The position numbers were made by a program, and so were the translations under genes. From Minisyncoccota bacterium (lineage in GTDB: Bacteria; Patescibacteriota; Minisyncoccia; Phycocordibacterales; PALSA-1337): 64,000 nt of DNA. Location of the stretch: assembly GCA_041671485.1 (NCBI GenBank), contig JBAZBL010000001.1:23037-87036 (forward strand), given 5' to 3'. Position 1 is the stretch's first letter, and the number at the start of each line of letters is the position of its first letter. The notes beneath the pieces are model-generated. The model saw nothing but the letters and a program-made list of their open reading frames with translations. It did no database searches and was not told the DNA's origin. Shown here one piece after another: positions 7,137 through 62,509 of the stretch.

Positions 7137-7700
7137 ATGGAAAATGACTCTATAAATATAGTATCAGATGATAGTTTGGACGATTCGGTCGTAGCAGAAG
7201 AACATACAGGAGAAATGATAAAGAAGCTTCGCGAGAAGCTGAAGATCTGTGAAAAAGAAAAACTTGAATATCTAACAGGTTGGCAACGAGCCAAGGCCGA
7301 TCTTATTAATGCTAGAAAAAGAGATGATGATGATCGTAAAGAATTTATCAGATTTGCAAATGAAGGACTTTTGAATGATATACTGCCTGTTCTAGAGAGT
7401 TGGGACTCTGCAATGAATCACAAAGAATCTTGGGAAAAGGGAGATCCGAGCTGGAGGCAGGGGATGGAGTCTATCATAAATCAATTGAAGGGAGTTCTTT
7501 CTAATAATGGTCTAGCAGAGATAAACCCACTAGGAGAGAAGTTTGACCATTCCAAACATGAATCTGTATCACATAAAATAGTTGATGATGCCAAACTCGA
7601 CCAAATGATTCTTGATGTTGTACAAAAAGGTTATTCTCTGGGTGATAAAATATTGAAGCCTGCAAAGGTGGTAGTAGCTGAATACCGGGCTGTAGTATAG
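7137..7700 (+). CDS. grpE: Nucleotide exchange factor GrpE (3' end overlaps tRNA-Pro by ~15 nt)
   Basis: 187 aa. 'WQRAKADLINARKR' (the GrpE 'AEFENYRKR'-like motif), 'LPVLESWDSAM' and the C-terminal 'PAKVVVAE' are present. The stop TAG at 7698-7700 lies inside the predicted tRNA. Confidence 0.8.
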   Translation: MENDSINIVSDDSLDDSVVAEEHTGEMIKKLREKLKICEKEKLEYLTGWQRAKADLINARKRDDDDRKEFIRFANEGLLNDILPVLESWDSAMNHKESWEKGDPSWRQGMESIINQLKGVLSNNGLAEINPLGEKFDHSKHESVSHKIVDDAKLDQMILDVVQKGYSLGDKILKPAKVVVAEYRAVV

Positions 7701-7756
7701 CGGTAGTATACACCCATGGGGTGGGTGTAGTCCGGGTTCGACTCCCGGCAGCCCGA
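7686..7756 (+). tRNA. tRNA-Pro (anticodon GGG), atypical D/anticodon junction (71 nt, no encoded CCA)
   Basis: Perfect 7-bp acceptor CGGGCTG/CAGCCCG with discriminator A. D arm GTAT/ATAC with loop AGCGGTAGT. T arm CCGGG-TTCGACT-CCCGG. Anticodon hairpin CACCC-[ATGGGGT]-GGGTG gives U33-GGG-G37. The stretch between the D stem and the T stem is 2-3 nt shorter than canonical, so the fold is non-standard. Confidence 0.55.
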
Positions 7757-7773
7757 AGGGATGAAACAAGTCG
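7739..7773 (+). repeat. 35-bp direct repeat copy 1 (tRNA-Pro T-loop/3' end plus 17 nt of 3' flank)
   Basis: CGACTCCCGGCAGCCCGAAGGGATGAAACAAGTCG, identical to 7874-7908. Confidence 0.9.
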
Positions 7774-7873
7774 CTAATGCGACTTGTTTAGGGAGGCGAA
7801 AGGGTTTTCGATGTTTGCGAGGACGAGCTTGTCGAGTCCAAGCAAACCGAAAACCACCTGGCGACGTAGTCGC

Positions 7874-7908
7874 CGACTCCCGGCAGCCCGAAGGGATGAA
7901 ACAAGTCG
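7874..7908 (+). repeat. 35-bp direct repeat copy 2 (displaced partial tRNA-Pro 3' end); a third degenerate fragment GTAGTCCGAC at ~7925-7935
   Basis: Exact 35/35 match to 7739-7773. It is preceded by GTAGTC...GCC, which mimics the tRNA variable-loop/T-stem region with a deletion. Confidence 0.9.
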
Positions 7909-7933
7909 TTTTAACGACTTCCTGGTAGTCCGA

Positions 7934-11115: not shown

Positions 11116-11262
11116 ATAGAGCCAAATATATCTTTTAATGTTATTATTTTGTTATTCCTCTGCAGGATGAGAGAGCTCGTGCTGTAATAGGAAATTCGAA
11201 ACATGGAAACCGACGCGTCAAAATCGTTTTTTGTGTTACGAAAAAGGGCAAAGGGAGGTTCC

Positions 11263-11310
11263 GACGGATGATGTGGCTTTCTGTCATTTCATCCGTCTTT
11301 TTATTTATTT
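11263..11310 (+). terminator. Rho-independent terminator-like hairpin (GACGGATGA...TCATCCGTC + TTTTTATTTATTT), ~150 nt downstream of zwf
   Basis: Perfect 9-bp inverted repeat with a 17-nt loop followed by a T-rich tract. The ~150-nt region between zwf and this hairpin (11150-11260) is GC-richer and has no ORF. Confidence 0.5.
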
Positions 11311-11419
11311 TATAGAAGAAATTGTATTGAGACAAGTCTCTGTCTCTGTTGAAAAGATTGATTTTGAGGTGCAGATTAAAATACAGTAAAAATGTTTCAA
11401 TTGTGATATAATTGAGCAA

Positions 11420-12382
11420 ATGATCAATCAACTTGTAAAATATATGCATCCATTTGAAAAAATACTAAGTGTTTCAAAAGAAAATATTGTTCTTGAAATA
11501 AAAGGCTTTTCTGATTTACCATGGGTAGATTTCTTACTTAATCCTCGCCGTTTAAGAGGTAGCGACTTCTTGATGCGATGGTCACAGGGGGTTTGGAGCG
11601 AAAATCGTCTTATTGAAGCGATAAATGAAAGCGGGAAATATTTTGCCGTTCCTTATGGTCCGAGCGGAACTGCCCCAACAGACGATGTACGGGCATTTGA
11701 ACTTTATTTTGAACGTTTAGAGAAAGCAGGTCTTGGTCATATAAAAAGACCAGATTTACTTGTATTCAAGAAAACAAACGAGAAAGCAGTGAGCAAGATT
11801 CTAAAAAATATTGGCGGAATACAAGAATTGCCTTTTACAGAAGAAAGTAAGCTTGATGGATTGCTTAAGATGGCAACGGTGGCAGTAGAATGTGAAAACA
11901 GTCTATGGAAATCAAAGAAAATGCCTGATTATGAAACTCTTCTTACACCACAGAAAAGATTAAACGGTCAGTTTGGATTGAAGAAAACAGCTGTTTTACC
12001 AACTGTAATCATTAAAGAAGAAGACCGAGAACCTCTTAATAAGTGGCAGGAAAATAATAAAGTACTGATTCATGTGTGGCATGTATTTTACGACCAAGCA
12101 TTTGGTATTCCTCTCAAAGAAGTGGAACGGTTGATCAGTAATGGTCTTATTCAGCCGACGATTCAAACATTTCAGGCACCCGGCGGAGCAACGACAAAGA
12201 AAGCCATATACAAAATCTATTACCGTTATGCCTATCCACTTGGTGACGCTATAGAAGAACCTACGCTTATTTCAGATTGTATTGAGGACAAGAATGGACA
12301 CATTTTGCCGTATGTTAAATTCCATGGAGGTAAGTTAAGACTTAACAATGAAGCTATTAAAGTCCTGGATTCAATTTTATGA
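11420..12382 (+). CDS. Putative type II restriction endonuclease (uncharacterised family), translationally coupled to downstream N6-adenine methyltransferase
   Basis: 320-aa ORF with no recognisable family. Its TGA stop overlaps the ATG of the methylase (ATGA). There is a possible PD-(D/E)xK-like 'RPDLLVFKK'. The call rests on genomic context. Confidence 0.4.
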   Translation: MINQLVKYMHPFEKILSVSKENIVLEIKGFSDLPWVDFLLNPRRLRGSDFLMRWSQGVWSENRLIEAINESGKYFAVPYGPSGTAPTDDVRAFELYFERLEKAGLGHIKRPDLLVFKKTNEKAVSKILKNIGGIQELPFTEESKLDGLLKMATVAVECENSLWKSKKMPDYETLLTPQKRLNGQFGLKKTAVLPTVIIKEEDREPLNKWQENNKVLIHVWHVFYDQAFGIPLKEVERLISNGLIQPTIQTFQAPGGATTKKAIYKIYYRYAYPLGDAIEEPTLISDCIEDKNGHILPYVKFHGGKLRLNNEAIKVLDSIL

Positions 12383-13890
12383 AAAGAATTATTCATCAAA
12401 AATTACCATCTCAACACAATGAGAGAGAAAGACTTAGAGATAAGGGACAATTTTGGACTCCGAGCTGGGTTGCTGATGCAATGGTTGCTTATGTGGCCAA
12501 AAATGCCGATCTTGTCTTCGATCCCGGAGTTGGTAAGGGTGTTTTTTATAGCTCGCTCAAAAAGATTAATCCGAAAATTAAATTCTACGGTACGGATATT
12601 GACCCAAATATTATTACTGATGCAAAAGCTGAAGGTATTTTTGATGATAATGCTCATCTCGAGATAAGAGATTTTATCCTCAATACTCCAAAGAAACTAT
12701 TCCGAGGTATTGTCGCAAATCCACCTTATATACGCCATCATCGTCTGTCACAAGAATATAAAGAAAAATTTAAAGCAATAAGTATACGGTCAATGAATGA
12801 CACACTCGATGGTCGCGCTGGTTTGCATATTTATTTCCTTATTCAAGCTCTAAACTTACTCGATAAAGGTGGTAGACTTGCTTTCATTATGCCAGCAGAT
12901 ACATGTGAAGGCATATTTTCAAAAAAGCTTTGGGATTGGATTTCAAAAGATTTCGCCATTGATGGTGTAATAACTTTTGACCATAAAGCTACACCTTTCC
13001 CTGGTGTAGATACTAATGCAGTTATCTTTTTAATCCGCAAAGACAGTCCAATAGAAAAAATAAAGTGGATTAAATGTTTGGAGCCAGAAACTACTCAATT
13101 ATTGAGTCTTATAAACGATGATTTCAAAGACGATAAGTTTTCTGATCTAGTTATCTATGATAGAGATTTAGAAGAAGCAATCTCGACAGGCTTGTCAAGG
13201 GCACCACAGGATAGAAAATTTGAATTCACTTTGGTCGATTTTGCAAAAGTAATGCGTGGTATCGCTACAGGTGCTAACGAATTCTTTTTTCTCACAAAGA
13301 AAAAGGTGAAGGAACTTAAGATTCCCGATAAATTCTTTCTTACAGCAGTTGGTCGGACACGCGATGCTGAGGGGTCTTATATTACAAAAGAAACTCTAGA
13401 AAAATTGGAAAGAAAAGGGAGGCCTACGCTTCTGTTTTTTCCTAATGGGACTGATTGGAAAAATATGCCTGATTCAGTTAAAAATTATATTATAGAGGGT
13501 CAGAAAATGGGATTGTCTAATCGCGCGTTGATTTCAACAAGACAACCTTGGTATAAAATGGAAGTTAGAGAAAAACCAGTATTTTTATTTGCTTATCTTG
13601 GTAGAAGAAATGCGCGGTTTATAAAAAATGAAGCAGGGATTATTCCACTCACTAGTTTCCTTTGTGTATATCCCCATTCAGATAATAAGGAATATATTGA
13701 TAAACTATGGGGAGTTTTACAACATCCAGATACAATCTCAAATTTGCAACTAGTTGGAAAATCTTATGGTTCTGGAGCAATTAAAGTTGAGCCTCGGTCA
13801 TTAGAGAGATTACCTATAAGTTCTAAAATTATTAAGGAATTTGGTCTAAATCCTATTAAGTTGGGATTATCTTTGTTTACACAAACATAG
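12379..13890 (+). CDS. N6-adenine DNA methyltransferase, gamma-class (Eco57I/TaqI-like), type II R-M
   Basis: Motif X 'GQFWTPSWVADAM', motif I 'FDPGVGKGVF', motif IV 'NPPYI' (NPPY), and a C-terminal target-recognition region. Confidence 0.85.
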   Translation: MKRIIHQKLPSQHNERERLRDKGQFWTPSWVADAMVAYVAKNADLVFDPGVGKGVFYSSLKKINPKIKFYGTDIDPNIITDAKAEGIFDDNAHLEIRDFILNTPKKLFRGIVANPPYIRHHRLSQEYKEKFKAISIRSMNDTLDGRAGLHIYFLIQALNLLDKGGRLAFIMPADTCEGIFSKKLWDWISKDFAIDGVITFDHKATPFPGVDTNAVIFLIRKDSPIEKIKWIKCLEPETTQLLSLINDDFKDDKFSDLVIYDRDLEEAISTGLSRAPQDRKFEFTLVDFAKVMRGIATGANEFFFLTKKKVKELKIPDKFFLTAVGRTRDAEGSYITKETLEKLERKGRPTLLFFPNGTDWKNMPDSVKNYIIEGQKMGLSNRALISTRQPWYKMEVREKPVFLFAYLGRRNARFIKNEAGIIPLTSFLCVYPHSDNKEYIDKLWGVLQHPDTISNLQLVGKSYGSGAIKVEPRSLERLPISSKIIKEFGLNPIKLGLSLFTQT

Positions 13891-19196: not shown

Positions 19197-22100
19197 ATGA
19201 TACACATGAAAAAGAAGACATACGGAGGTCAGACCTCCGGAGACAAATCAAAAGAATATAGTCCCTCTTTGATTGAAAATAAATGGCAAAGAAAATGGAA
19301 ATCTTCCAAGCTTTTCAAGACAAAAGAAGATACAAAGAAAGATAAATATTATATTCTAGACATGTTCCCATATCCTTCTGGTGAAGGACTTCATGTCGGG
19401 CATCCCAAAGGCTATATAGCGACCGATATAGTATCACGATACAGGAGAATGAGTGGGTACTCGGTTCTGCACCCTATGGGTTTCGATGCTTTCGGACTTC
19501 CTGCAGAGAATTATGCTATCCAGATGAAGACGAACCCAGCTATTGCAGTGTCTCAGAATGTCAAAAGATTCAAGAAGCAACTAGAAATTCTTGGCTTTGA
19601 CTATGATTGGTCTCGAGAAGTGAATACTACAGATCCAAAATACTATAAATGGACGCAATGGATCTTTCTACAACTTTTGAATAAGGGTCTAGCTTATGAA
19701 TCATATGAGCCGATAAACTGGTGTCCTTCTTGCAAAACTGGTTTGGCAAATGAAGATGTCGATGATGGTAGGTGCGAGAGGTGTGGTACTCCTGTAGAGA
19801 AGAAGCCGATGAGACAATGGGTCTTGAAGATCACTGATTATGCAGGAAGGTTGCTTGAGGATTTGGATGTAAAGAATAATGATGATAAACCCTTACTCGA
19901 CTGGCCGGAATCGATCAAAGAGGCTCAAAGGAATTGGATAGGGAGGAGTGAGGGAGCGGAGATAAAATTTCAAATTTCAAATTTCAAAGGTCAAAAATTA
20001 GAAAAGAACATAAAAGTCTTCACCACCCGCCCTGACACCATATTCGGCGTGACTTATTTGGTATTGGCACCAGAGCATAGATTGGTCAAAGAACTTTTGC
20101 CATTGGTTGAAAACAAAAAGGAAGTTGAGGAATATGTTGGTCGTGCCAAGAATGAGACCGAAATAGAGCGCACTGATGCCAAGAAAGAGAAGACCGGCGT
20201 TGAGATGAAGGGTATCAAGGTGATCAACCCCGCAAATAGAGAAGAGATACCTGTTTGGATAGCAGATTATGTTCTTGCCGACTATGGTACAGGCGCCGTC
20301 ATGGCTGTACCCTCACACGATGAGAGAGATTGGGATTTTGCGAAGAAGTTCGACTTACCGATAAAGCAGGTCATTGCACCTTACTTCACAGACAATCCTG
20401 GAAGTAAAGATGCTGTTAGAGATAATAAGAAAACAGTAAAAAGAAAGACTGCATATGCTCTTGTCTTTGACAAAAAAAATGATAAATTTTTATGCTTGAA
20501 TTGGGAAAAATTTGGTTGGCACTCTGGGATCATTGGTGGAGTTGATGATGGTGAAAGTTTCAAAGATGCAGCTTTACGAGAAATAAAAGAAGAAACTGGT
20601 TATAAAAATTTAAATTTGATCAAGAAATTGGGAGGTGAGCAACACAATCATTTCTTTGCTACTCATAAAGATGAAAACCGATATGCAATTGGCCATGGCA
20701 TGCTTTTTGAACTTGTGAATGATGAAAAAGAATTGGTTCTCGAAGAACATAGTTTAAACCATAAACCTGTGTGGATTGATATGGATAAAATGGAAGACTG
20801 GCTCAATTTGTCAGCTTTTAAATATATGTGGAAAGCTTACAAATCTAATTCGGATTGTTTTACTGGATATGGTAGGTTGTTAAATTCTGAGAAATTTGAT
20901 GGGACAGAAAGTAAAGATGTGATGAAAGAGATTACAGATTTTGTCGGTGGTCAGTGGGTCACAAAGTATAAACTCCGAGACTGGGTATTTTCTAGACAAC
21001 GGTATTGGGGCGAGCCGATACCTGTAATACATTGCACAAATTGTTTTGCAAAAGAGAATAAAACAAACGCAATTATTTTGCATGGCTGTCCTTCGAATGT
21101 TGAAAGAGCGATGGATCCTAAAAGACAAACATATGATAAACATTGGATACCATGGACAAAGAAACAATTAGAAATAGCAGGTATTGAGACACTAGTGCCA
21201 TTGATGCCAGAACCATGGCATATGTCATATGAAAAATGGAAGATAGAATTTGATAAATTACCGATAACTGAAAATAGTATTCTAATAGGACATAGTTGTG
21301 GATCTGCTTTTCTGGTTAGATGGTTGGGAGAGACAAAGAAAAAAGTGAGGATGCTTGTCTTGGTTGCACCTTGGAAAATAAATAGTAATAATGATGAATT
21401 TAGAAATAAATTCTATACATACACTATTGACAATGAAATTAAAGACAAAATAAAAAATATCTTTATCTTTACATCAGATGATGAGGAGGATAATGGAAAG
21501 AAAAGTGTCAATATCTTCAGAGAATCTTTGAATGCAAAAGTAATTGAATTAAAAAAACATGGTCATTATATTTACGGTGATATGAAAACAGAAGAATTCC
21601 CTGAATTAATAAATTTGATAAGTTCGTTTTCTTCCAAAGTAGTACCAGTTCCCGAGAAAGACCTACCAATAAAACTACCCAAAGTAAAATCCTATGAACC
21701 CACAGGAACAGGCGAATCGCCACTCGCTAATATAGACAAATGGGTCAATGTAAAGTGTCCAAAGTGCAAAGGTAAAGCCAAAAGAGAGACAAATACAATG
21801 CCACAATGGGCTGGCTCGTCTTGGTATTATTTGCGATATGAAGATCCAAAGAATAAAAAAGCATTCGTTGACACAAAGAAAGACAAATACTGGTCACCAG
21901 TTGACCTCTATGTAGGCGGAGCAGAACATGCCACGCGCCACCTCATATACGCTCGATTCTGGCACAAATTCTTGTACGATATAGGCATAGTCTCAACCAT
22001 CGAACCATTCATCAAACTTCAGAACGTAGGACTCATAATAGGTGAAGATGGAAGGAAGATGTCAAAAAGATTTGGTAATGTTGTCAATCCTGATGAAATT

Positions 22101-22802
22101 GTCGAAATATATGGAGCTGATACACTCCGAATATATGAAATGTTCATGGGTCCATTTGATCAACAGATCGCTTGGAATACGAACAGTATGGTTGGTTCTA
22201 GGAGATTTATCGAAAAAGTTTGGAGACTAAATAATAATCTAAAGACGAATAGAGGATCGACCGTCGCAGGGGCGACAAATGGCGACTTGGCGAAGCCAAC
22301 GAAGGCATTTAGTCGCCCCGAGGAGGGAGATCCGTATTTAATTTTGATTGATAAAACCCTTCACAAAGCAATTAAAAAGGTAACCGAAGACATTCAAGGA
22401 CTAAAATTCAATACTGCATTGAGTACACTTATGATTGCTGTGAATGAAATGGAGTCTTCGGGATCGGTGACTAGAGAACAATTCGAAATATTACTGAAAC
22501 TGCTAGCACCATTTGCTCCTTATGTAACAGAAGAATTGTGGTCTGGACTTGGTAATAAGAAATCGATACATATATCAGAATGGCCAGAGTATGATCCGAG
22601 CCTAATAGTTGATAATGAAGTAAAAATCATTGTTCAAGTGAATGGCAAGGTTCGTGGTTCATTTGACGCTGATCCAGATATAAATGAAGAAGAAATGAAG
22701 AAGAAAGCGCTCAATCTACCTGAAGTGAAAAAGTGGATTGATGGCAATCAAATCAAGAAAGTGATCGTCGTTAAAAGTAAGTTGGTGAGTTTGGTGGTTT
22801 AA
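19197..22802 (+). CDS. leuS: Leucyl-tRNA synthetase with two embedded extra domains (NUDIX hydrolase; alpha/beta serine hydrolase) and one in-frame palindromic element
   Basis: 1201 aa, versus ~800-880 typical. HIGH motif 'PYPSGEGLHVGHPKGY'. KMSKS motif 'KMSKRFGNVV'. 'YKLRDWVFSRQRYWGEPIP'. C-terminal anticodon-binding domain. The NUDIX box is 'GGVDDGESFKDAALREIKEETG'. A GxSxG hydrolase nucleophile 'IGHSCGSAF' lies within the insertion. Confidence 0.9.
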   Translation: MIHMKKKTYGGQTSGDKSKEYSPSLIENKWQRKWKSSKLFKTKEDTKKDKYYILDMFPYPSGEGLHVGHPKGYIATDIVSRYRRMSGYSVLHPMGFDAFGLPAENYAIQMKTNPAIAVSQNVKRFKKQLEILGFDYDWSREVNTTDPKYYKWTQWIFLQLLNKGLAYESYEPINWCPSCKTGLANEDVDDGRCERCGTPVEKKPMRQWVLKITDYAGRLLEDLDVKNNDDKPLLDWPESIKEAQRNWIGRSEGAEIKFQISNFKGQKLEKNIKVFTTRPDTIFGVTYLVLAPEHRLVKELLPLVENKKEVEEYVGRAKNETEIERTDAKKEKTGVEMKGIKVINPANREEIPVWIADYVLADYGTGAVMAVPSHDERDWDFAKKFDLPIKQVIAPYFTDNPGSKDAVRDNKKTVKRKTAYALVFDKKNDKFLCLNWEKFGWHSGIIGGVDDGESFKDAALREIKEETGYKNLNLIKKLGGEQHNHFFATHKDENRYAIGHGMLFELVNDEKELVLEEHSLNHKPVWIDMDKMEDWLNLSAFKYMWKAYKSNSDCFTGYGRLLNSEKFDGTESKDVMKEITDFVGGQWVTKYKLRDWVFSRQRYWGEPIPVIHCTNCFAKENKTNAIILHGCPSNVERAMDPKRQTYDKHWIPWTKKQLEIAGIETLVPLMPEPWHMSYEKWKIEFDKLPITENSILIGHSCGSAFLVRWLGETKKKVRMLVLVAPWKINSNNDEFRNKFYTYTIDNEIKDKIKNIFIFTSDDEEDNGKKSVNIFRESLNAKVIELKKHGHYIYGDMKTEEFPELINLISSFSSKVVPVPEKDLPIKLPKVKSYEPTGTGESPLANIDKWVNVKCPKCKGKAKRETNTMPQWAGSSWYYLRYEDPKNKKAFVDTKKDKYWSPVDLYVGGAEHATRHLIYARFWHKFLYDIGIVSTIEPFIKLQNVGLIIGEDGRKMSKRFGNVVNPDEIVEIYGADTLRIYEMFMGPFDQQIAWNTNSMVGSRRFIEKVWRLNNNLKTNRGSTVAGATNGDLAKPTKAFSRPEEGDPYLILIDKTLHKAIKKVTEDIQGLKFNTALSTLMIAVNEMESSGSVTREQFEILLKLLAPFAPYVTEELWSGLGNKKSIHISEWPEYDPSLIVDNEVKIIVQVNGKVRGSFDADPDINEEEMKKKALNLPEVKKWIDGNQIKKVIVVKSKLVSLVV
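19223..19239. repeat. Palindrome CGGAGGTC-A-GACCTCCG (family also at 49341 and 51121)
   Basis: Perfect 8-bp arms. It lies at codons 9-15 of the leuS ORF. Confidence 0.8.
19965..19985 (+). repeat. Heptanucleotide tandem repeat (AAATTTC)x3 inside leuS
   Basis: AAATTTCAAATTTCAAATTTC. The same heptamer, x4, occurs at the 5' end of the M23 peptidase gene. Confidence 0.85.
22254..22333. mobile_element. GC-rich palindromic miniature element (family A) inserted in-frame in leuS
   Basis: GGATC...CGTCGCAGGGGCGACAAATGGCGACTTGGCGAAGCCAACGAAGGCATTTAGTCGCCCCGAGGAGGG...GATCC. About 93% identical to the infB copy (44490-44576) and the topA copy (40424-40530, reverse complement). It encodes 'STVAGATNGDLAKPTKAFSRPEEGD' within an otherwise AT-rich gene. 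Confidence 0.75.
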
Positions 22803-26361: not shown

Positions 26362-26727
26362 TTAGATTCCCAGAACCTGAACCAAATCGTTGAAAAGAAA
26401 TGGCTTATGGATTGTATACTGGGCCCCTACCGAGATTGCGGCCGCAACATCCGCTTTGCCAAGGTCTCCAGACATGAGACATATCTTGGCATCGTCCGGC
26501 AGAAGCTCCTTCGCTTCTCTGATCAGCCTGATACCATTCCCATCTGGATTGATGTTGAGGTCGGTAATGAGGACATCGAACTCTGGATCTCCAGACAAGT
26601 ATTCCAGAGTTTCACTTTCAGATCCAAAATCAACGACATGATGACCCAGTCCTCGAAAACGTATTGCCAACGTGAGACGAAGAAGCTCAGTGTCATCAAC
26701 GATTAGTATCTTTAGTAACTTATTCAT
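26362..26727 (-). CDS. Single-domain response regulator (CheY-like receiver)
   Basis: 121 aa. 'ILIVDDTELLR' and the phospho-acceptor region 'DVLITDLNI'. Confidence 0.85.
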   Translation of the reverse strand: MNKLLKILIVDDTELLRLTLAIRFRGLGHHVVDFGSESETLEYLSGDPEFDVLITDLNINPDGNGIRLIREAKELLPDDAKICLMSGDLGKADVAAAISVGAQYTIHKPFLFNDLVQVLGI

Positions 26728-26797
26728 CGTATTTTTCTCTTTCTTTATCCGAATTTATTTCTTTATCTGTTCTAAAAAGTATGATATCATCATTAAT

Positions 26798-28003
26798 ATG
26801 ATTCGTCAAGACAGAAAAAAGGTATTCATCGGCCTATCTGGAGGAGTAGATAGTGCTGTTTCTGCGACACTATTGAAAAGAGCTGGCTATGATATAACTG
26901 GTGTCTTCATCAAAGTCTGGCAACCAGATTGGATAGAGTGCTCTTGGCGAGAAGATAGGCTCGATGCAATGAGGGTTGCAGCACATCTAGATATACCCTT
27001 CATTACACTAGACCTAGAAAAAGAGTATAAACATGAAGTTATAGATTATATGATAGAGGAATACAAAAGAGGCAAAACACCAAATCCAGATGTAATGTGC
27101 AATCGAACAATCAAATTTGGTGCATTTTATGATTGGGCAATGCAAAATGGTGGAGACTTCGTAGCAACGGGGCACTATGCAAGAATCAGATGCCAGAACA
27201 TTGTCGGCGCTGACTTGTACCTGCGCGAAGCCTTTTCGCCTCACCACTACTCGCGGTTCGGCGAGAAAGGTTCGCTTCGGCACGCGTCAGCACCTGACAA
27301 TGTTAAATATTCTCTATCTATGGGAAAAGACTCAAATAAAGACCAATCGTATTTTCTCTGGACATTGAAGCAGGAACAATTGCCACATATTTTATTTCCT
27401 GTTGGCAATATGACAAAGCCGGAGGTTAGGAAGCTGGCAAAAAGGTTTGATTTGCCAAATGCTGACAAAAAAGACAGTCAAGGACTATGCTTTATTGGCA
27501 AGGTTGATGTAAAAGATTTTCTTTCACATTACATTGAGAGAGAAAGTGGTAATGTTCTAAATATGAATGGTGAAATCATAGGTAAACACCCAGGATCATT
27601 ATTTTTCACTATTGGAGAGAGACATGGTTTTAGTTTAGACAAGAAGACACCAAATGATGAGCCAATGTATGTCGTAGACAAAGACATAGAGCAAAATACG
27701 ATTACTGTCGGGGTGCGATTGGCTCGCGAAGTAAATGTGTCCGACTTGATGAACACTTCATCAGAGCAAATTTCAATTGAACAAGTGAATTGGATTCGAG
27801 GGAGTGTTCCAGAAAATTTCAAGGATAAAATATTCACTGCAAGGACTAGATATAGACAAAGACTCGAAAAAATAAGAATCATTTCTGTAACATTTACTGA
27901 AACAATAATAGAATTTATGGAAAAACAAGAGAATTTAGCTAGTGGACAATCACTTGTTATATATGATGGGGATGAATGTTTTGGTGGGGGAGTGATATCT
28001 TGA
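26798..28003 (+). CDS. mnmA: tRNA-specific 2-thiouridylase MnmA (start at internal ATG; contains ~30-aa in-frame GC-rich insertion)
   Basis: PP-loop 'VFIGLSGGVDSAVSA', 'GHYARI' and 'KDQSYFL'. The ORF track start at 26672 encodes an implausible low-complexity leader. Confidence 0.88.
   Translation: MIRQDRKKVFIGLSGGVDSAVSATLLKRAGYDITGVFIKVWQPDWIECSWREDRLDAMRVAAHLDIPFITLDLEKEYKHEVIDYMIEEYKRGKTPNPDVMCNRTIKFGAFYDWAMQNGGDFVATGHYARIRCQNIVGADLYLREAFSPHHYSRFGEKGSLRHASAPDNVKYSLSMGKDSNKDQSYFLWTLKQEQLPHILFPVGNMTKPEVRKLAKRFDLPNADKKDSQGLCFIGKVDVKDFLSHYIERESGNVLNMNGEIIGKHPGSLFFTIGERHGFSLDKKTPNDEPMYVVDKDIEQNTITVGVRLAREVNVSDLMNTSSEQISIEQVNWIRGSVPENFKDKIFTARTRYRQRLEKIRIISVTFTETIIEFMEKQENLASGQSLVIYDGDECFGGGVIS
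27204..27296. repeat. GC-rich palindromic in-frame insertion within mnmA (~90 bp)
   Basis: GGCGCTGAC...GCGCGAAGCCTTTTCGCC...GGCGAGAAAGGTTCGCTTCGGC...GCGTCAGCACC, with approximately reverse-complementary halves. It encodes 'VGADLYLREAFSPHHYSRFGEKGSLRHASAP' between the conserved GHYAR and KDQSYFL motifs. It is far GC-richer than its flanks. Confidence 0.7.
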
Positions 28004-32554: not shown

Positions 32555-32839
32555 GTGCGAATGTTTGAGGACGATGAACGGAGTATTATGATCCAAAAAC
32601 AAAGATTCATTTTGTCTGTCGCCATGTTGATGGCCCTGGTAGCAGCGCTACTAGTGTTCATCAGCTATCCAAAAGAGGTGGCGCCGGTGATGACTCCGGT
32701 CATCACGAACACGGCTCCTGTAGAGGAGATCGTTGAGACCAACAATGTAGTCACCAATTCCGCGAAAGTGGATGGGGTGATAAACAAAACTGGATCAGTC
32801 TCGGTGACTGGAACAGTTCGTGCAGAGTTCGGGAAGTGA
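32555..32839 (+). CDS. Small membrane-anchored hypothetical protein (GC-rich island)
   Basis: 94 aa. One TM ('FILSVAMLMALVAALLVFI') and a Thr/Val-rich tail. Its GC content is distinctly higher than the surrounding genome. Confidence 0.5.
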   Translation: MRMFEDDERSIMIQKQRFILSVAMLMALVAALLVFISYPKEVAPVMTPVITNTAPVEEIVETNNVVTNSAKVDGVINKTGSVSVTGTVRAEFGK

Positions 32840-32898
32840 AGTGCAGTGCAGAAAACAACAGAAACAAACACAACAAACAGAGAAGAAAGACAACGCAG

Positions 32899-33990
32899 AT
32901 GAAAAAAACACAAATCCTATCGGTAATCTTATCAGTCACACTGCTCGCAGTCGGCGCCTTTGCGCAATCACCTCCAGCTTCTAGCGGTGGTGGTTCGAGC
33001 GGAGGCACGGGGACAATCGTGGTTCCGGCAGATAAAATGCCAACCGCGCTTGCCTTCCTCGGTTCCAAGGCGGCACTACGCGCTTTCGCTCGTGAAAGTG
33101 CAAGGAGCGCGAACTTAAACATCAACTCTGCCGGCATGCAGGGTACATGGGGAACTGGTTCCTCATGGGATTCCCCAAAAAGTCAAGAACAAATCCTTTC
33201 GATAATCAATGCGTGGAGGTTCACCTTCACCATGGAGAATCCAGCGGATTCTGTTCAGGCGACGACGGAAATCAAGAACAGCGACTGGGAGACTCTCTTC
33301 AGCGCGGAGTCTTGGCGGACGCCACAGCTTGTGAGTGGAAGTAGTTACCGATTGCCGGAACTTTACTTCCACTTAACACTGGCGGATATCATCCCATTCA
33401 AGGTTGACAGGTCGGTTCAATGGGGTCAAATCAAGTACCTCAATGACGACGGCAGAACGATCACTACCGTTGACCTTGTTGTCCGGAACGGAAAAGTTTA
33501 TTTCCGATCCGATCTCGCAGGTAAGGGAATTCTCGTCCTGCACAATAACGATGGGAGAACATTCCTGTATAACCTCCGGAATGGTGGAGTACAGGTACCA
33601 GTTGCAAGTGTTCAGTACATGGGGAGTTCCTCGTGGATTGAGAATATGCCATGGTTCAACAACCCAAGCACCATCAATCAGCAGGTCTGGAGCTGGAATG
33701 GTGTTGGCCAAAATCCTACATTCGATGTCAACATGGACTCGAGTGCATGGGTATCGTTCAGGACATATTCCAACGAAGGTGCCGAAGCGATTGGTTTCCA
33801 GGTACGACCACAAGGTGGCACGAACTGGACTTTCTATCCGGTTGTCCTACCTGCCAAGTATGTACCAATCCAACTCACCCCAGGCACCTCGTTTATCATT
33901 CCGGTATGGAATCCGGATGAGTTCAAGGAACCGGAGCCGTACATTCCTGAGAATGGGACGCCGGTGGGTTTCTTCGATGGTAAGGGTTAA
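32899..33990 (+). CDS. Secreted hypothetical protein with signal peptide (GC-rich island); start at ATG 32899
   Basis: 'MKKTQILSVILSVTLLAVGAFAQSP' looks like a signal peptide. It is followed by a Gly/Ser linker and a ~330-aa beta-rich domain rich in W and Y. No family was recognised. Confidence 0.6.
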   Translation: MKKTQILSVILSVTLLAVGAFAQSPPASSGGGSSGGTGTIVVPADKMPTALAFLGSKAALRAFARESARSANLNINSAGMQGTWGTGSSWDSPKSQEQILSIINAWRFTFTMENPADSVQATTEIKNSDWETLFSAESWRTPQLVSGSSYRLPELYFHLTLADIIPFKVDRSVQWGQIKYLNDDGRTITTVDLVVRNGKVYFRSDLAGKGILVLHNNDGRTFLYNLRNGGVQVPVASVQYMGSSSWIENMPWFNNPSTINQQVWSWNGVGQNPTFDVNMDSSAWVSFRTYSNEGAEAIGFQVRPQGGTNWTFYPVVLPAKYVPIQLTPGTSFIIPVWNPDEFKEPEPYIPENGTPVGFFDGKG

Positions 33991-39259: not shown

Positions 39260-41710
39260 TCAAGGATTAACTTCCTTTATTTTCTTTTTGAATCCACGTT
39301 GTTTCTTTTCTTGTGCCAATAACTCTAATGCACGTTCGAATGTAATATTGTAAATATCATCTGGTGCTTTGACTGAACGGAAGTCGCCATCAAGGACGAC
39401 GTATGGACCAAAACGTCCGATCGAAGCTGTAATTTCTTTATTTGTCTTTGGATCTATACCCAATACTTTTGGCAAACTCAAATATTTGAGAGCATCTGCA
39501 ACCGTAACTTTCATAGGATCAGCGTTCTTTGGAATCGAGGCCATCTTTGGTTTAAAATTAGCAACAATTTTATTGGCATCTTGCTCTTCACTTTTCACTT
39601 TTAACTTTTCCCCGCGCGCCAAGCTTCGCCCGGCGAAGCGGGCGGGACTTTTAATCTTTATTTTCCCCTTAATCCTCTCCCCCAACTGCACATATGGTCC
39701 AAATCTTCCATTCAAAACAAATATTGGCAATCCTGTTGTCGGATCTATACCTATAGGTTCATCTTTCTTGAATTCCATACCGTCTATAGTGAGTGCTCCA
39801 TCACAATCGGGATATTTTGAACATGATATAAATTTGCCGTTCTTTCCTAGTTTTATTTCCATAGAAGGACTGCCACATTTCGGACATTTGAACTTTGAAT
39901 CTGCTAAACCAAGATTGGTCAATTTGTCTATCTTTTCTTTGGACTTCACTTCTTTGTGAAATGGTCCATAAAAGTCAGTAAGAGTCTTCAAATATGTACG
40001 TTCACCATTTGCTATTTCATCGAGTTCATTCTCCATCTCTGCTGTAAAGTCATCACTTATATAAGTAGGGAAGTTCTCCTCTAGGAATGTAGAAACAACT
40101 TCACCTATATCGGTCGGCTTTAGAGAGCGACCCTCCTTTTCTACATAACCTCTATCTTCTATAGTCTTTGAAATAGAAGCGTATGTAGAAGGACGCCCTA
40201 TGCCTCTCTTTTCCAATTCTTTGATCAAACCTGCTTCTGTATATCGAGACGGTGGTTGTGTTTGCTTTTCTTCGGAATCAATATTCAAAAGCTTCAATGA
40301 TTCTCCTTTATCACATTTTGGTAAATTAACTTCATCGCCACTTGAATCTGGATCAGCCTTGAGCCAGCCGTCGAATAAAATACGAGAACCATTTGCTTCG
40401 AAGTTTGGGATGCCACCGGCCGCTTCTCCCTCCTCGGCGCGACTAAATGTCTTCGTTTGCTTCGCAAAGTCGACATTTGTCGCCGCCTCGACGGTCGAAG
40501 CGGCCTCCGACGCCGTTCGCGGAGGGAGAATGTTCTCCACCGATTCCAAAATGTTTGCAATAATCTTTGTTTTCGCCAATCTTGCATCTGCCATTTGAGA
40601 AGCAACCGCTCTTTGCCAAATAAGTTTATAAAGACGCTTTTGTTCATCCGTATGTCCAGCAACAGATTTATTGAAATGACTTGGTCTTATAGCTTCATGT
40701 GCTTCTTGAGCATTTTTGCTCTTTGTAGCATATGTTCTTATATGTAGGTAATTTTTGCCATATTCTTTTTCTACCACTTGGCTTATCTGTGCCAATGCTT
40801 GCTCTCCTAGATTCGTAGAATCTGTCCTCATATATGTGATATATCCAGATTCGTACAATTTCTGGGCAATACTCATTGTCCTAGAAGGAGAAAAACCGAG
40901 TCTTGAACTAGCGGTCTGTTGCAAAGTAGATGTTATAAATGGTGCGCGTGGAGATCTCTTTTGTTCTGATTCTTCTATGTCTATGACTTTCCAATCATTC
41001 TTTTTTGCAGTGTCAATTATGTATTCAGCTTCTTCTTTCTTCTTTGGCTCTACAGAACAAGATAGATGCAATTTACCATCTTTTGTAGTCAACCAATCTC
41101 CAGCAATAGTCCAATATGTCTCTGGCTTGAATGCACGGATCTCTCTTTCTCTCTCCATTATTATACGTAGAGCAGGGGACTGGACTCGGCCAGCAGACAA
41201 GCCATAACGAACTTTTTTCCAGATAAGTCCGGAGAGATCATATCCTACTATCCTGTCTAGAACACGACGAGCTTCTTGTGCTTCTTTTAGATTTTCATCT
41301 ATAGGTCTAGGACTTTTGAGAGCTTCCTCTACAGCTTCTTTTGTAACTTCATGATATGTGATTCTCTTTATCTTCGATGCAGGGATCTTGTCATAACCAT
41401 CAGACAAGCCCTTCTTGGTCAGAAGCTCCTTCAAATGCCAAGCTATGGCTTCACCTTCACGGTCTGGGTCGGTTGCAAGAAGTATTTCATCGGCTTTCTC
41501 TGCTTCAATCCTTATTTCATCTATGATAGTTTGCTTCTTTGCTACGACTTCATAGTGGGGTATAAAACCGCCTTCTATATCTACTGCTTTTTTATTGGAC
41601 TTTGGCAGATCACGCACATGACCAACAGAAGCACGTACGATAAAATCTTTTCCCAAATATTTGGAAATAGTTTTTGCTTTTGAGGGGGACTCGACGATCA
41701 GTAGTTTCAT
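39260..41710 (-). CDS. topA: DNA topoisomerase I (with two in-frame GC-rich palindromic insertions)
   Basis: Toprim N-terminus 'LLIVESPSKAKTISKYLG', the catalytic Tyr region, and C-terminal zinc ribbons 'CPKCGS...CSKYPDC'. Confidence 0.92.
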   Translation of the reverse strand: MKLLIVESPSKAKTISKYLGKDFIVRASVGHVRDLPKSNKKAVDIEGGFIPHYEVVAKKQTIIDEIRIEAEKADEILLATDPDREGEAIAWHLKELLTKKGLSDGYDKIPASKIKRITYHEVTKEAVEEALKSPRPIDENLKEAQEARRVLDRIVGYDLSGLIWKKVRYGLSAGRVQSPALRIIMEREREIRAFKPETYWTIAGDWLTTKDGKLHLSCSVEPKKKEEAEYIIDTAKKNDWKVIDIEESEQKRSPRAPFITSTLQQTASSRLGFSPSRTMSIAQKLYESGYITYMRTDSTNLGEQALAQISQVVEKEYGKNYLHIRTYATKSKNAQEAHEAIRPSHFNKSVAGHTDEQKRLYKLIWQRAVASQMADARLAKTKIIANILESVENILPPRTASEAASTVEAATNVDFAKQTKTFSRAEEGEAAGGIPNFEANGSRILFDGWLKADPDSSGDEVNLPKCDKGESLKLLNIDSEEKQTQPPSRYTEAGLIKELEKRGIGRPSTYASISKTIEDRGYVEKEGRSLKPTDIGEVVSTFLEENFPTYISDDFTAEMENELDEIANGERTYLKTLTDFYGPFHKEVKSKEKIDKLTNLGLADSKFKCPKCGSPSMEIKLGKNGKFISCSKYPDCDGALTIDGMEFKKDEPIGIDPTTGLPIFVLNGRFGPYVQLGERIKGKIKIKSPARFAGRSLARGEKLKVKSEEQDANKIVANFKPKMASIPKNADPMKVTVADALKYLSLPKVLGIDPKTNKEITASIGRFGPYVVLDGDFRSVKAPDDIYNITFERALELLAQEKKQRGFKKKIKEVNP
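39596..39653. repeat. 42-bp GC-rich palindromic element (CTTTTCCCCGCGCGCCAAGCTTCGCCCGGCGAAGCGGGCGGG) flanked by 8-bp direct repeat ACTTTTAA, in-frame in topA
   Basis: The direct repeats sit at 39596-39603 and 39646-39653. The element contains the perfect palindrome GCTTCGCC-C-GGCGAAGC. It encodes 'SPARFAGRSLARGE' between KIK and KVK codons. Confidence 0.7.
40424..40530. mobile_element. GC-rich palindromic miniature element (family A, reverse orientation) with 10-bp perfect TIR TTCTCCCTCC/GGAGGGAGAA, in-frame in topA
   Basis: The reverse complement of the inner ~65 nt (CCGTCGAGGCGGCGACAAATGTCGACTTTGCGAAGCAAACGAAGACATTTAGTCGCGCCGAGGAGGG) matches the leuS and infB copies at ~85-90%. It encodes 'STVEAATNVDFAKQTKTFSRAEEGE', paralleling the leuS peptide. 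Confidence 0.75.
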
Positions 41711-43502: not shown

Positions 43503-43820
43503 TTATATAGCAATCATATCTATCTTCTGCCTATTTTTCTCGCCTTTGTCTATTGCCACATCAAAATAGGGGACTCTCATCATCCTTGCGTGTTCGCATA
43601 CATATGTTCGAAAATCTGTGAGTTGTCTATGTATAAAGTCTAGTGCAGCCGGCTCTTGATCTTGAGGCAAAACAGTAAACATGATGACTGCCCTTGATCC
43701 ACGATTTTTTATTTCTACATCTGTAATCGTGATTAGGGAAGTGCGGTTTGATTCACGCGAAAAAAACTCCGCTGCTAACTCTTTTATAAGTTCTTTGAGT
43801 TTTTGTTCTTTGAAGCTCAT
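43503..43820 (-). CDS. rbfA: Ribosome-binding factor A
   Basis: 105 aa. KH-like RbfA pattern 'RESNRTSLITITDVEIKNRGSRAVIMFTV'. It sits downstream of infB as in the nusA-infB-rbfA operon. Confidence 0.8.
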   Translation of the reverse strand: MSFKEQKLKELIKELAAEFFSRESNRTSLITITDVEIKNRGSRAVIMFTVLPQDQEPAALDFIHRQLTDFRTYVCEHARMMRVPYFDVAIDKGEKNRQKIDMIAI

Positions 43821-43835: not shown

Positions 43836-45437
43836 TTAACCTACCTTTTCCACCGTCTTCACCGCCTCCACTCTATCTCCAACAGCAATTTCAACTTTTG
43901 CTTCTACCATAACACCAAATTCATGTCCCTCTCTAACTTCACCTGTTCTCATCTTCTTTTCTTGAAGTTCTCTTATCTTACCTCGTCCAATCTCTGCATC
44001 TCTTCTAATTATCTTTACTTCATTTCCAGTCAAAATAGTACCCGTTACAACCTTTCCACCAATAACTTGTTTATCTCTTTCTTTTGAAAATATCGCAAGA
44101 ATCTTGGCGAGGCCAATTGATTCCTCTATATATTCTTTTGGCACTTTTGCCAGTAATGAATCACGAACGAATTGAACCAATTCATATATAACTTTGAATG
44201 TTTTGACATTTACAGAATTGTGCTCGATCACAGCAACAACCTTCTTGTCTGGCATTGAATTGAAACCAATTATTGTAATATTTGGATCACCCATGGCAAT
44301 CTTTACATCATTTTCATTTATATCACCAATACCTTCGGAAACAACCTTTATTTGCACCTTATCATGTTTTATCTTTGCCAATTCATGTTTGACACCATCG
44401 AGACTGCCTATAACATCAGCTTTGATGATAATGGGGAATGAAATAATTTCTGTCTCTGTATTCTCTTCAGAATCAATAGCTGACTTGTTGTCGTCGCCCC
44501 CGTCGCAGGCGGCGACAAATGGCGACTTCGCGAAGCGAACGAAGGCATTTCGTCGCGCCGAGGAGGGGGCGACGACTGAAATCTTATTTACCTCCACCAA
44601 CTTCTCTGCCTCTTTCTTTGTATCAACTATAGTAAATGTACTTCCACAAACAGGTATTTCATTCCAGCCACTAACAATTACAGGCATTGAAGCTATCGCT
44701 CTATCAATCTTTTGTCCTTTGAAATCTTCTATAAAACGAATTGGTGTGTAAGATACACCTGCAACAGCAAATGTACCTATTCCAAGTGTTCCATTTTTTA
44801 TCAATAATGTGGCTTGTATTCCTTTTTGTGTATCCATTTCAGATTCTATGACTATACCTTCTGCAGATTTATCTGGATCTGTTTTGAGATCGGCCAATTC
44901 GGAAATCAAAATAACCATATCCAAAAGTTCTGAAATGCCTTCTCCATTCAAGGAAGAAATTGATACATTTGGAATATCACCACCCCAACCTTCAAGATAT
45001 ACCTCATTCTCGCCCAAACTTTGTTTTGTCTTATTTATATCTGCATTTGGTTTGTCTATCTTATTTATAGCAACAACATAGGGGATTTTTGCATTTTTAA
45101 TTTCGTTCAAAGCTTCTATCGTTTGTGGCTTTACACCATCTTCAGCAGAAACAACCAATATTGCTACATCAGCAGCTTTGGCACCTCTCTCACGGATAGT
45201 ACAAAAGGCTTCATGACCTGGTGTATCCAAAAATGTGATTTCATGTTTATTCCCATCACTACTTATATGCTCTACTTCATATGCGCCAACGTGCTGGGTT
45301 ATACCACCAGCTTCGCCTGCAACTATATTTGATTTCCTGATGAAATCGAGCAGAGTAGATTTGCCATGATCTATATGACCCATAACAACGACTATAGGAG
45401 GCCGCTTTATGCAGTTTTTTGTATTCTTATTTGGCAT
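43836..45437 (-). CDS. infB: Translation initiation factor IF-2 (short form; contains in-frame palindromic element)
   Basis: G-domain 'VVVMGHIDHGKSTLLDFIR', 'DTPGHEAF' and 'NKIDK'. The C-terminal beta-barrel domains are present. Confidence 0.92.
   Translation of the reverse strand: MPNKNTKNCIKRPPIVVVMGHIDHGKSTLLDFIRKSNIVAGEAGGITQHVGAYEVEHISSDGNKHEITFLDTPGHEAFCTIRERGAKAADVAILVVSAEDGVKPQTIEALNEIKNAKIPYVVAINKIDKPNADINKTKQSLGENEVYLEGWGGDIPNVSISSLNGEGISELLDMVILISELADLKTDPDKSAEGIVIESEMDTQKGIQATLLIKNGTLGIGTFAVAGVSYTPIRFIEDFKGQKIDRAIASMPVIVSGWNEIPVCGSTFTIVDTKKEAEKLVEVNKISVVAPSSARRNAFVRFAKSPFVAACDGGDDNKSAIDSEENTETEIISFPIIIKADVIGSLDGVKHELAKIKHDKVQIKVVSEGIGDINENDVKIAMGDPNITIIGFNSMPDKKVVAVIEHNSVNVKTFKVIYELVQFVRDSLLAKVPKEYIEESIGLAKILAIFSKERDKQVIGGKVVTGTILTGNEVKIIRRDAEIGRGKIRELQEKKMRTGEVREGHEFGVMVEAKVEIAVGDRVEAVKTVEKVG
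44490..44576. mobile_element. GC-rich palindromic miniature element (family A) with 12-14-bp perfect TIR GTCGTCGCCCCC/GGGGGCGACGAC, 87 bp (29 codons), in-frame in infB
   Basis: Inner sequence CGTCGCAGGCGGCGACAAATGGCGACTTCGCGAAGCGAACGAAGGCATTTCGTCGCGCCGAGGAGGG. It is in the opposite coding orientation to the leuS and topA copies. It encodes 'SSARRNAFVRFAKSPFVAACDGGDD' in IF-2. Confidence 0.8.
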
Positions 45438-61608: not shown

Positions 61609-61843
61609 ATGGGTATTATAGCAAGAAAGTATATGAATTTCTTTATGCTAGAGTTATCAACAACAAGTAAATTTGACTATATATATCCAATTTGTTAGTC
61701 TTTAATTAGAAGTATGCAATAATAACTTACGAGGTGCTCCGATGTTCCCTCAGAATATCTGGGGCTTGAGTTGGAGAACACCACCTTGTGAGACGCTACT
61801 TCTAACAAAGAACCCCTTTCCACTTCGGTCAGGGATTTTTTGT

Positions 61844-62509
61844 TTATATTATAATCGATTTTCCATTGAACAATTCCCTCCCCTTTCCAATAATATTTTT
61901 CTTCAGAATTTTGAAACATTCCTCACCTAGTTTTCCTTTTTCAAGATATCGTGCCAAAGCTCCTGCAATCCAGTCGGCAATTTGAATATTCACTACCGCA
62001 GTTGAATCAACCATTTCAATTTGTAAAACTACACCCTTTGGCAAGGATGGTAACAGACGAGCTTTTAGGACTTCCTTGAATTCTGTCTCGGACATACCAC
62101 TCAATCTTCTACGGTCGCAGAAAACACGAAACTCTTTATCAGTTGTCGGTAAATATGATGTTAGTATTTCGCCGACTATATTTGTATATAAAAGTCCGCT
62201 CTGTAATTTATTTTTATGATGATACTCTGCTGGAATATTTCTATGAAGTAAATAGGCAAAATGTATTCGAACATCTAGTTTTGAAATCTCTCTCAAAGTC
62301 TTTAGGCGTAAGGCATCAGAAAATCCGGTACTTGCCCATTTAATCTCACTCAGATCACGCATCTTTCTAGGAAAATGGCCACGAAGCCATGCTCGAAATC
62401 CCTTTGCTGTTCGCCGAACATTGCCAACAGTAAATGAAGCAACAATAAAATAGTTTTTATTACTGTACTTGGAAAATTGTCCACTTTCATCAAGAAAAAT
62501 ATATGGCAT
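61844..62509 (-). CDS. DUF3800-family protein
   Basis: N-terminal 'YIFLDESG' and C-terminal 'IQIADWIAGAL' match the DUF3800 signature motifs. Family membership is recalled from memory. Confidence 0.6.
   Translation of the reverse strand: MPYIFLDESGQFSKYSNKNYFIVASFTVGNVRRTAKGFRAWLRGHFPRKMRDLSEIKWASTGFSDALRLKTLREISKLDVRIHFAYLLHRNIPAEYHHKNKLQSGLLYTNIVGEILTSYLPTTDKEFRVFCDRRRLSGMSETEFKEVLKARLLPSLPKGVVLQIEMVDSTAVVNIQIADWIAGALARYLEKGKLGEECFKILKKNIIGKGRELFNGKSIII

Follow-up and report, generated by a model that had tools for sequence, protein, structure and literature searches.

The infB gene of a Minisyncoccota bacterium (contig JBAZBL010000001.1), encoding translation initiation factor IF-2, carries within its reading frame an 87-bp GC-rich imperfect palindrome, which an initial annotation had assigned to a repeat family, family A, with another copy in leuS. 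We analyzed this element in the 64,000-nucleotide stretch of DNA in which it lies (the window) and compared it with copies found in public genomes and metagenomes. The features at the locus, together with the two other copies in the window, are collected in Table 1, in which CPR stands for candidate phyla radiation, ORF for open reading frame and CM for the covariance model described below. The infB product gave 8000 scored homologues, the closest of which are annotated as Patescibacteria, Paceibacterota and Taylorbacteria.

Table 1. Features of the infB locus and family copies in the window
Feature	Position	Strand	Remarks
infB, host gene, short 533-aa CPR form of IF-2	43836..45437	-	Pfam GTP_EFTU, EF-G_D2, IF-2 (C1)
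rbfA, after infB	43503..43820	-	gene order infB-rbfA
Family A palindromic element	44490..44576	+ (antisense to infB)	encodes IF-2 residues 288-316, VVAPSSARRNAFVRFAKSPFVAACDGGDD
Left terminal inverted repeat, GTCGTCGCCCCC	44490..44501	+	includes CGTC tag, unpaired in most other copies
Right terminal inverted repeat, GGGGGCGACGAC	44565..44576	+	perfectly complementary to left arm
Apical stem-loop, TTCGC-GAA-GCGAA	44527..44539	+	includes GCGAAGC motif
Antisense ORF, 185 aa	44194..44751	+	reads element in frame F1; no Pfam match
leuS copy	22248..22335	+	gene +; in frame, sense; ORF 19197..22802; CM 96 bits
topA copy	40420..40507	-	gene -; in frame, sense; ORF 39260..41710; CM 105 bits

Results

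The infB element, reading GTCGTCGCCCCC GTCGCAGGCGGCGACAAATGGCGACTTCGCGAAGCGAACGAAGGCATTTCGTCGCGCCGAGGA GGGGGCGACGAC, has a GC content of 67%, compared to about 37% for the window on average. The 12–14-bp perfect terminal inverted repeats first proposed hold for 12 bp and not for 14, given that the next pairs outward (TT vs TG) and inward (G vs A) fail; within the window the 12-mer, allowing up to two mismatches, matches only twice, once per strand, at the ends of the element. With 45437 − 44576 = 861 = 3 × 287, the 87 bp correspond exactly to codons 288–316 of infB, that is, 29 codons in phase 0, in agreement with the length and frame originally assigned. None of the six reading frames across these 87 bp contains a stop codon, so that the element is indeed open in both orientations. 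RNA folding yields a single long imperfect hairpin of −55.4 kcal/mol for the + strand and −51.5 kcal/mol for the − strand (z = −6.8 and −5.4, respectively, with 0 of 200 shuffles as stable), while folding with DNA parameters gives z = −6.0 (+) and −4.5 (−). The hairpin is capped by GCGAAGC, an extraordinarily stable DNA mini-hairpin motif (PMC13037366), and the apical stem pair adjoining the loop covaries among copies (C:G, G:C, T:A). Like the initial annotation, we consider the antisense ORF across the element spurious, as it lies wholly within the conserved infB gene and has no Pfam family; its frame, F1, is the one in which most other host genes read the element.

A surface loop of domain G or II of IF-2 had been named as a site to check for the insert. 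In the AlphaFold2 model of the protein (mean pLDDT, the predicted local distance difference test score, of 81.5), a helix at residues 274–289 is followed by a stretch with pLDDT below 50 at residues 290–328, and the first strand of domain C1 starts at residue 332. Because of this low-confidence stretch, with C1 beginning after it, the 29 residues are placed in a predicted disordered linker between domains II and C1, outside domains G and II. Among the 60 closest IF-2 orthologues in our alignment, the segment between domain II and C1 ranges from nothing (in P0008, a protein of 491 aa) to some 60 residues, and the insertion site is a permissive and hypervariable linker. Conservation of the 29 residues in IF-2 at large, which would have spoken for an ordinary part of the protein, was not found: 116 of the 120 closest orthologues are without any family-derived peptide and four have one.

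To delimit the family, a covariance model (R1; 88 positions, 28 pairs) was built from 15 copies and run over the window with filters off. BLAST and the model concur in exactly three family copies in the window, in infB, leuS and topA, and thereby confirm the proposed repeat. The infB copy is found at 44487–44575 (+) with 98 bits (E = 1.3e-22, model positions 1–88), a score to be read with its presence in the seed alignment in mind. It is 92.6% identical to the leuS copy over 68 bp (BLAST, 22261–22327), as against the some 93% noted before, and 91.8% identical to the topA copy over 61 bp (BLAST, 40428–40488, minus strand). The leuS copy encodes the peptide STVAGATNGDLAKPTKAFSRPEEGD and is closed by the stem GGATC/GATCC, the topA copy encodes STVEAATNVDFAKQTKTFSRAEEGE and is closed by GGCCGCTTC/GAAGCGGCC. 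Whereas the infB copy scores 98 bits on the + strand, it scores 23 bits on the − strand, and the reverse strands of the three copies score 21–25 bits, which shows the element to be asymmetric and gives it a defined orientation. With infB itself on the − strand, the infB copy is antisense to its host gene and opposite to the leuS copy, as annotated, and it is the only one of the three to be so. In TopA, the insertion site is a loop of 0–100 residues in which, among the orthologues compared, only the window protein carries the element; a family peptide is present in 2 of 120 TopA orthologues, the other (P0161) having it at a different site.

The surroundings of the leuS and topA copies show several further peculiarities. 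Through a 13-nt inverted repeat (40424–40436 and 40518–40530, 92% complementary), in a GC-rich block at 40392–40549, the topA copy pairs by its 3′ arm with the stretch immediately upstream of it; this may be what is left of a further copy, arranged head to head in a manner resembling a dimer of repetitive extragenic palindromes (REPs). The variable C-terminal region of topA has a small GC-rich island at 39595–39660, with a hairpin GCTTCGCC/GGCGAAGC in a lysine-rich hypervariable segment; its fold is weak (z = −1.9) and it may be a decayed insert. At 40469–40474 the topA copy has GTCGAC, in which position the infB and leuS copies have GGCGAC, and an AccI-like restriction endonuclease gene adjoins an Eco57I-type methylase gene at 11420–13890; GTCGAC fits the AccI site GTMKAC, a match that may be coincidence. 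The CPR TopA orthologues P0141 and P0144 carry, in the same loops (one near residue 400, one in the C-terminal region), peptides such as VTPAKAGVQ...LDSRLRGNDK and VIPAEAGIQ...LDPRFRGGDK, which we take to be typical translations of short CGTC-type REPs. Since these loops carry REP-like peptides, several repeat families seem to use the same permissive loops. LeuRS (19197–22802) is a protein of 1201 aa with an unusual architecture, in which NUDIX (416–532) and Ser_hydrolase/alpha-beta hydrolase (646–805) domains are embedded between the editing domain and the remaining catalytic core; the exact protein is absent from a collection of 15 billion proteins.

Outside the window, one pattern scan each of the GTDB genomes and of the JGI/ENA metagenomes gave 17 further unique copies, bringing those aligned to 20. 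The first genome pattern was too strict, returning eight loci that included three true copies and one diverged relative. All named genome records with copies are metagenome-assembled genomes of Patescibacteria or Saccharibacteria, while the contigs from metagenomes are unlabeled as to organism; independent copies in L009, L017, L021 and L011 (L numbers denote copy-bearing loci or related contigs, P numbers proteins) score 84–103 bits with model R1. The aligned copies keep a conserved core, GGCGACAARTGKCGACTT...AACGAAGRCAYTTNGTCGCGCCGAGGAGGG, and come in two forms, a short one of 88 nt with the apex TTNGC-GAA-GCNAA, containing GCGAAGC, and a long one of 101 nt with a larger apex. The closing stem differs in nearly every copy (GTCGTCGCCCCC, GGATC, GGCCGCTTC, GGTCGC, CCTCCGTCTC, CCAC, CCGC, AGCCTC) and yet is always self-complementary, and is preceded by CGTC or CGTT in 14 of the 20 aligned copies, the CGTC of the infB copy lying inside its paired terminal repeat. 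Over 15 copies and 28 pairs, 98.8% of the pair cells are paired and 7 of the 28 pairs have changed on both sides; none of 500 shuffles attains these values, sliding the partners lowers pairing to 32–53%, and the RNAalifold picture agrees. One U-G pair is invariant across copies, at which the other strand would have an A-C mismatch, and the internal loops of the hairpin are conserved as well. Intergenic, untranslated copies share their arms with the coding ones; because of this, and because the two orientations encode unrelated peptides, the constraint acts on the nucleic acid and not on the peptide.

Four further possibilities were considered and rejected. Rfam has no family at the element, neither in the window at gathering threshold nor in five copy-bearing loci at E ≤ 1, which disposes of a known RNA family or ribozyme. 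Integron attC sites have conserved ends and a variable centre, the reverse of what is seen here. A phage vector was discarded as no copy was found with two patterns in the viral contigs of IMG/VR, and a small arginine-rich ORF in frame F2 (MNRVSRDRRRRRQ...) because start codons occur in some intergenic copies only.

Some loci show irregular copies or other neighbors. A chimeric copy at L019 2828–2927 and L022 947–1046 combines a normal long-form 3′ half with a 5′ arm swapped for the GC-rich GGCGATCCCCCTTCGCCAAGGCTACGGAGGACGCTGC, its CM score falling to 44 bits, and the 5′ arm of the IF-2 copy at L011 8813–8928 is interrupted by 21 inserted nt. L011 also bears IS3-family transposase genes (10265–11526; HTH_Tnp_2, rve) about 650 bp downstream of infB-rbfA, with no evident link to the element. 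L016, which bears an intergenic copy, has a sub-threshold match to the type III hammerhead at 10072–10126 (−) (42.1 bits, where the gathering score is 48.5; E = 6e-6).

Copies occur both between and within genes. Intergenic ones lie directly after stop codons in L016, L021 (two copies), L015, L017 and L003/L013. In-frame copies are present in IF-2 outside the window (L009, L011 and P0015). Others, flanked on either side by Pfam domains, sit in PNPase, MetRS, Dus, SecA, an S-adenosylmethionine (SAM) methyltransferase, GatB and a GT4 glycosyltransferase. Every in-gene copy that we examined keeps the frame of its host and is stop-free in the frame used. That frame is F1 (..AATxxDFAKxTKxFRRAEEG..) in most hosts, accounting for 11 of the 14 in-gene copies; the remaining three use R2 (window infB), R0 (the GT4 glycosyltransferase) and F2 shifting to F0 (Dus). 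A profile of the concatenated F1 and R2 translations retrieved only three short ORFs of 39–40 aa, such as gene calling yields over intergenic copies, and no more than four matches came from an exhaustive HMMER search across 1.84 billion representatives. As protein searches do not detect 25-aa inserts within long proteins, the census of the family rests on the DNA samples. Four public 'hypothetical proteins' of 39–45 aa (P0121, P0122, P0123 and P0125) match the F1 or F1+R2 element profiles and are probably annotation artefacts.

A relative holds the infB element in the reverse orientation. Its IF-2, encoded on the Logan contigs L009 and L010, is 86% identical to that of the window overall and 92% identical outside the linker, and the synonymous third positions of their infB genes are 76.6% identical to those of the window (23% divergence). 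The infB copy of L009 belongs to the same subfamily, with a core identical at 59 of 59 positions, and stands in the opposite, sense orientation. Its downstream junction aligns with that of the window gene, whereas the upstream junction differs by an indel of 21–23 nt; the closing stems of the two copies are related (GTCGC/GCGAC), and the window infB copy is nearer to the L009 copy than to the leuS and topA copies of its own genome (some 92%). Two histories fit these data. In the one, a single ancestral insertion was inverted in place with its core held by selection at the level of the nucleic acid, selection which cannot be on the peptide because the two orientations encode unrelated peptides; in the other, the same active subfamily was recently re-inserted at the same permissive or targeted site. 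No flipped infB allele was found within the same 90% protein cluster.

Discussion

We consider it likely that the infB element belongs to a family of palindromic repeats of Patescibacteria, GC-rich and non-autonomous, that combines a REP-like anatomy with the behavior of Rickettsia palindromic elements (RPEs) and is tolerated in permissive loops. The repeat unit would be one long imperfect hairpin with a conserved core and internal loops, a closing stem particular to each copy and, usually, a 5′ CGTC or CGTT tag. Copies would have spread to unrelated loci, those between genes being neutral and those within genes being the survivors, that is, stop-free insertions that keep the frame and sit in permissive disordered loops. 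The infB copy would then be transcribed and translated as 29 extra residues, for which the proposal requires no role. Mobility would most likely proceed via a single-stranded DNA hairpin recognized in trans by an enzyme encoded elsewhere. The sporadic presence of the element (4 of 120 IF-2 and 2 of 120 TopA orthologues) and its occurrence in three unrelated genes within 64 kb argue for such a dispersed family, and its anatomy, with the 5′ CGTC tag, the stable mini-hairpin apex and stems that vary from copy to copy, resembles that of REPs, which HUH tyrosine transposases handle in the form of single-stranded DNA hairpins, more closely than that of DDE-type MITEs (miniature transposable elements with inverted repeats).

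Several observations weigh against this proposal. None of the window ORFs encodes a transposase, an enzyme of the RAYT or IS200 type or a recombinase domain, Y1_Tnp included, and neither a target-site duplication nor a flanking direct repeat is visible at the copies; with no mobilizing enzyme in the window and no such duplication, we infer mobility from the distribution of copies only. No near-isogenic empty site was found, and for topA the closest orthologues, only 71–76% identical, are too distant to place the ends of the element or a target duplication. The preponderance of F1 (11 of 14; binomial probability of about 6e-7 if the six frames are equally likely and the insertions independent) points to either selection for a benign hydrophilic F1 peptide or an insertion bias. 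Translation of the infB insert is likewise something that we infer. Finally, the identity of 59 of 59 core positions in the face of 23% synonymous divergence is not explained by a neutral, decaying selfish insert.

The last observation is the starting point for the view that the element is an intragenic inverton, in which the 63 bp between the 12-bp inverted repeats would invert in situ and recode the IF-2 linker between F1 and R2, either through a recombinase or through template-switching during replication across the hairpin. A conserved hairpin would thus flip inside essential genes, and the IF-2 linker would toggle between two unrelated 29-aa sequences. The case for flipping in place comes from one comparison, that with L009, where an inverted identical core, a homologous downstream junction and related closing stems coincide with 23% synonymous divergence, and where the copy is nearer to the window infB copy than are the paralogues of the window genome itself. 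The length of the element, a multiple of three, and its openness in both orientations would suit such a switch, and recoding intragenic invertons down to 57 bp are documented (PMC10028968). Nevertheless, we think an inverton improbable: the window encodes no invertase or recombinase, the flipped variant is absent from the same 90% protein cluster, the upstream indel of 21–23 nt fits excision and re-insertion or an independent insertion equally well, and a family scattered over intergenic regions and many genes, with one orientation prevailing, has the pattern of a dispersed repeat and not of a dedicated switch.

It is also unlikely that the hairpin is a functional structured module kept for a role in cis, be it by binding RNase III or another protein that tunes how stable the mRNA is, by pausing translation between the domains of IF-2, by acting between genes as a terminator or insulator, or as a site at the DNA level. 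Sequence and structure are strongly conserved, with covariation, over distant CPR lineages, down to the internal loops and the one invariant U-G pair, whose counterpart on the other strand would be an A-C mismatch; the 59-nt core has stayed unchanged while synonymous sites of its host gene diverged by 23%, and intergenic copies follow stop codons immediately, all of which would be expected of such a module. However, copies run both with and against transcription (window infB; L002), their host genes and positions are unrelated and offer no consistent cis context, there is no T-run after the hairpin and no Rfam match, and most orthologues do without the element, which is thus unneeded for the function of those genes. 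Recent spread, or the requirements of a mobilizing enzyme, can also give conservation of this kind.

Removal or skipping of the element before or during translation, intron-like or by bypass as with T4 gene 60 and the mitochondrial 'byp' elements, would account for a very stable GC-rich hairpin persisting inside essential genes of an AT-rich genome. We regard it as very unlikely, given that all examined in-gene copies keep the frame and are stop-free, constraints that excision or bypass would lift, that no 'intergenic' copy was seen dividing one gene into two ORFs and that no ribozyme or intron model matches. That the segment is an ordinary lineage-specific IF-2 linker resembling other loci by chance or composition, as the hypervariable length and composition of the CPR IF-2 linker might suggest, is for practical purposes already refuted by CM E-values of 1e-22 to 1e-25 in unrelated genes and genomes, by the perfect 12-bp inverted repeat, by 67% against 37% GC and by fold z-scores down to −6.8.

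The dispersed repeat that we favor can be set against known systems. RPE-1 to RPE-10 (Ogata et al., as summarized in PMC10969869) are palindromic, about 100–150 bp long and present in coding and noncoding DNA. Like these, the present family consists of short palindromes dispersed in a small AT-rich genome of a host-dependent bacterium, occurs in frame in unrelated housekeeping genes as well as in noncoding DNA, adds a short peptide at sites compatible with the fold (here the IF-2 linker and the TopA loop) and has no transposase of its own. Unlike RPEs, it resides in Patescibacteria instead of Alphaproteobacteria, measures 87–101 bp, is strongly GC-rich relative to its host and folds into one long hairpin, capped by GCGAAGC and closed by a stem that varies from copy to copy, its core being near-identical over very distant lineages. 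The likeness is to descriptions of RPEs and not to their consensus sequences and, with a Paceibacterota host, can be that of an analogue at most.

In-frame insertions are documented for REPs (PMC3733652) as for RPEs (PMC10969869). CGTC-tagged REPs measure 20–40 bp, with stems of 8–9 bp starting with A/T, loops of 4–5 nt and a CCA tail (PMC3733652). In most copies an unpaired 5′ CGTC (or CGTT/TGTC) resembles the tag of these REPs, although in the infB copy the CGTC is paired within the terminal repeat. With CGTC/GTAG REPs our family shares GC-rich hairpins, and with CGTC REPs the presence of some copies in frame in genes (REPs being mostly intergenic), the lack of a linked transposase and probable mobilization through a single-stranded DNA hairpin. 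It differs from them in its 87–101 nt, some 28 pairs, internal loops, GC closing stem and GT(A) tail, and from a REPtron (REP plus REP-associated tyrosine transposase, RAYT) in that no IS200/IS605-like tyrosine transposase is linked to it among the window ORFs. Because it falls outside the size, stem and tail definitions of REPs, and RPEs were compared by description only, we file it as a new family of a known kind.

Coding MITEs such as ERIC/IRU, Correia/NEMIS and the Coxiella QMITE (PMC10969869, PMC5896051) are similarly small and non-autonomous, have terminal inverted repeats and can form in-frame fusions, but MITEs have constant, insertion sequence-derived termini and target-site duplications, whereas here the terminal stem varies, it is the interior that is conserved, and duplications are not seen. 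Intragenic invertons (PMC10028968) are, like the infB element, short in-gene segments between inverted repeats that are open in both orientations, and both orientations were seen here in two related genomes. Unlike them, the element belongs to a dispersed repeat family, its opposite orientations are found between genomes and not in the 90% cluster, and the window has no invertase.

The GC clusters of yeast mitochondria are likewise GC-rich elements that spread into compact, AT-rich genomes and are maintained in frame within protein genes. The coding palindromes of Nematomorpha mitochondria (PMC6649704) are again palindromic hairpins in frame in protein genes; both their arms encode conserved protein, so that they are not loop insertions. 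Both kinds are organellar and differ from the present family in sequence and size.

In the literature that we searched by full text, we found nothing relevant on such elements in CPR/Patescibacteria, nor a description of this set of essential host genes or of such conservation across lineages. Thus the family, and the phylum for elements of this kind, appear new, while the in-gene behavior is already known from Rickettsia.

Other features of the window

The mnmA ORF (26672..28003) holds a second, unrelated GC-rich palindromic insert at 27197–27304 (+), 108 bp or 36 codons long and starting at a codon boundary. It has perfect 9-bp terminal inverted repeats (AACATTGTC/GACAATGTT), inner arms of 40 nt that are 70% complementary and a DNA fold of −29.1 kcal/mol (z = −4.5), and is probably a member of another in-frame repeat family. 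The 3′ end of tRNA-Pro(GGG) (7686–7756) with the sequence downstream (7739–7785) is repeated 135 bp on (7874–7920; 47 nt, 89% identical), which resembles the att-type duplications that integrative elements leave behind. A DUF3800-V RNA (Rfam; 61708–61803, +, 82.6 bits) adjoins a DUF3800 protein gene (61844..62509, −), a known association. A gene for a 23S rRNA intervening-sequence protein (PF05635; 41875..42246, +) stands free between tRNA-Lys and tRNA-Leu, outside any rRNA gene. A 384-aa ORF (32836..33990, +) without Pfam match lies in a block of 51% GC, against some 37% for the window on average, and may be foreign or repeat-rich DNA.

Conclusions

Selfish DNA in frame in protein genes has so far been essentially a matter of Rickettsia, and the same behavior is met here with another hairpin family. 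Its hosts, the Patescibacteria, are a very large and mostly uncultured radiation, and the genes concerned are core genes, for IF-2, TopA, LeuRS, MetRS, SecA, PNPase and GatB. Repeat insertion offers one concrete source of the loop length variation in CPR IF-2 and TopA, and caution is called for in annotation, as GC-rich peptides in such proteins and 'hypothetical proteins' of 39–45 aa can derive from repeats. The inverted identical core in a diverged relative raises the question of whether these hairpins are under selection at the level of the nucleic acid or flip in place. The element, finally, is a marker for recent DNA exchange among CPR lineages.

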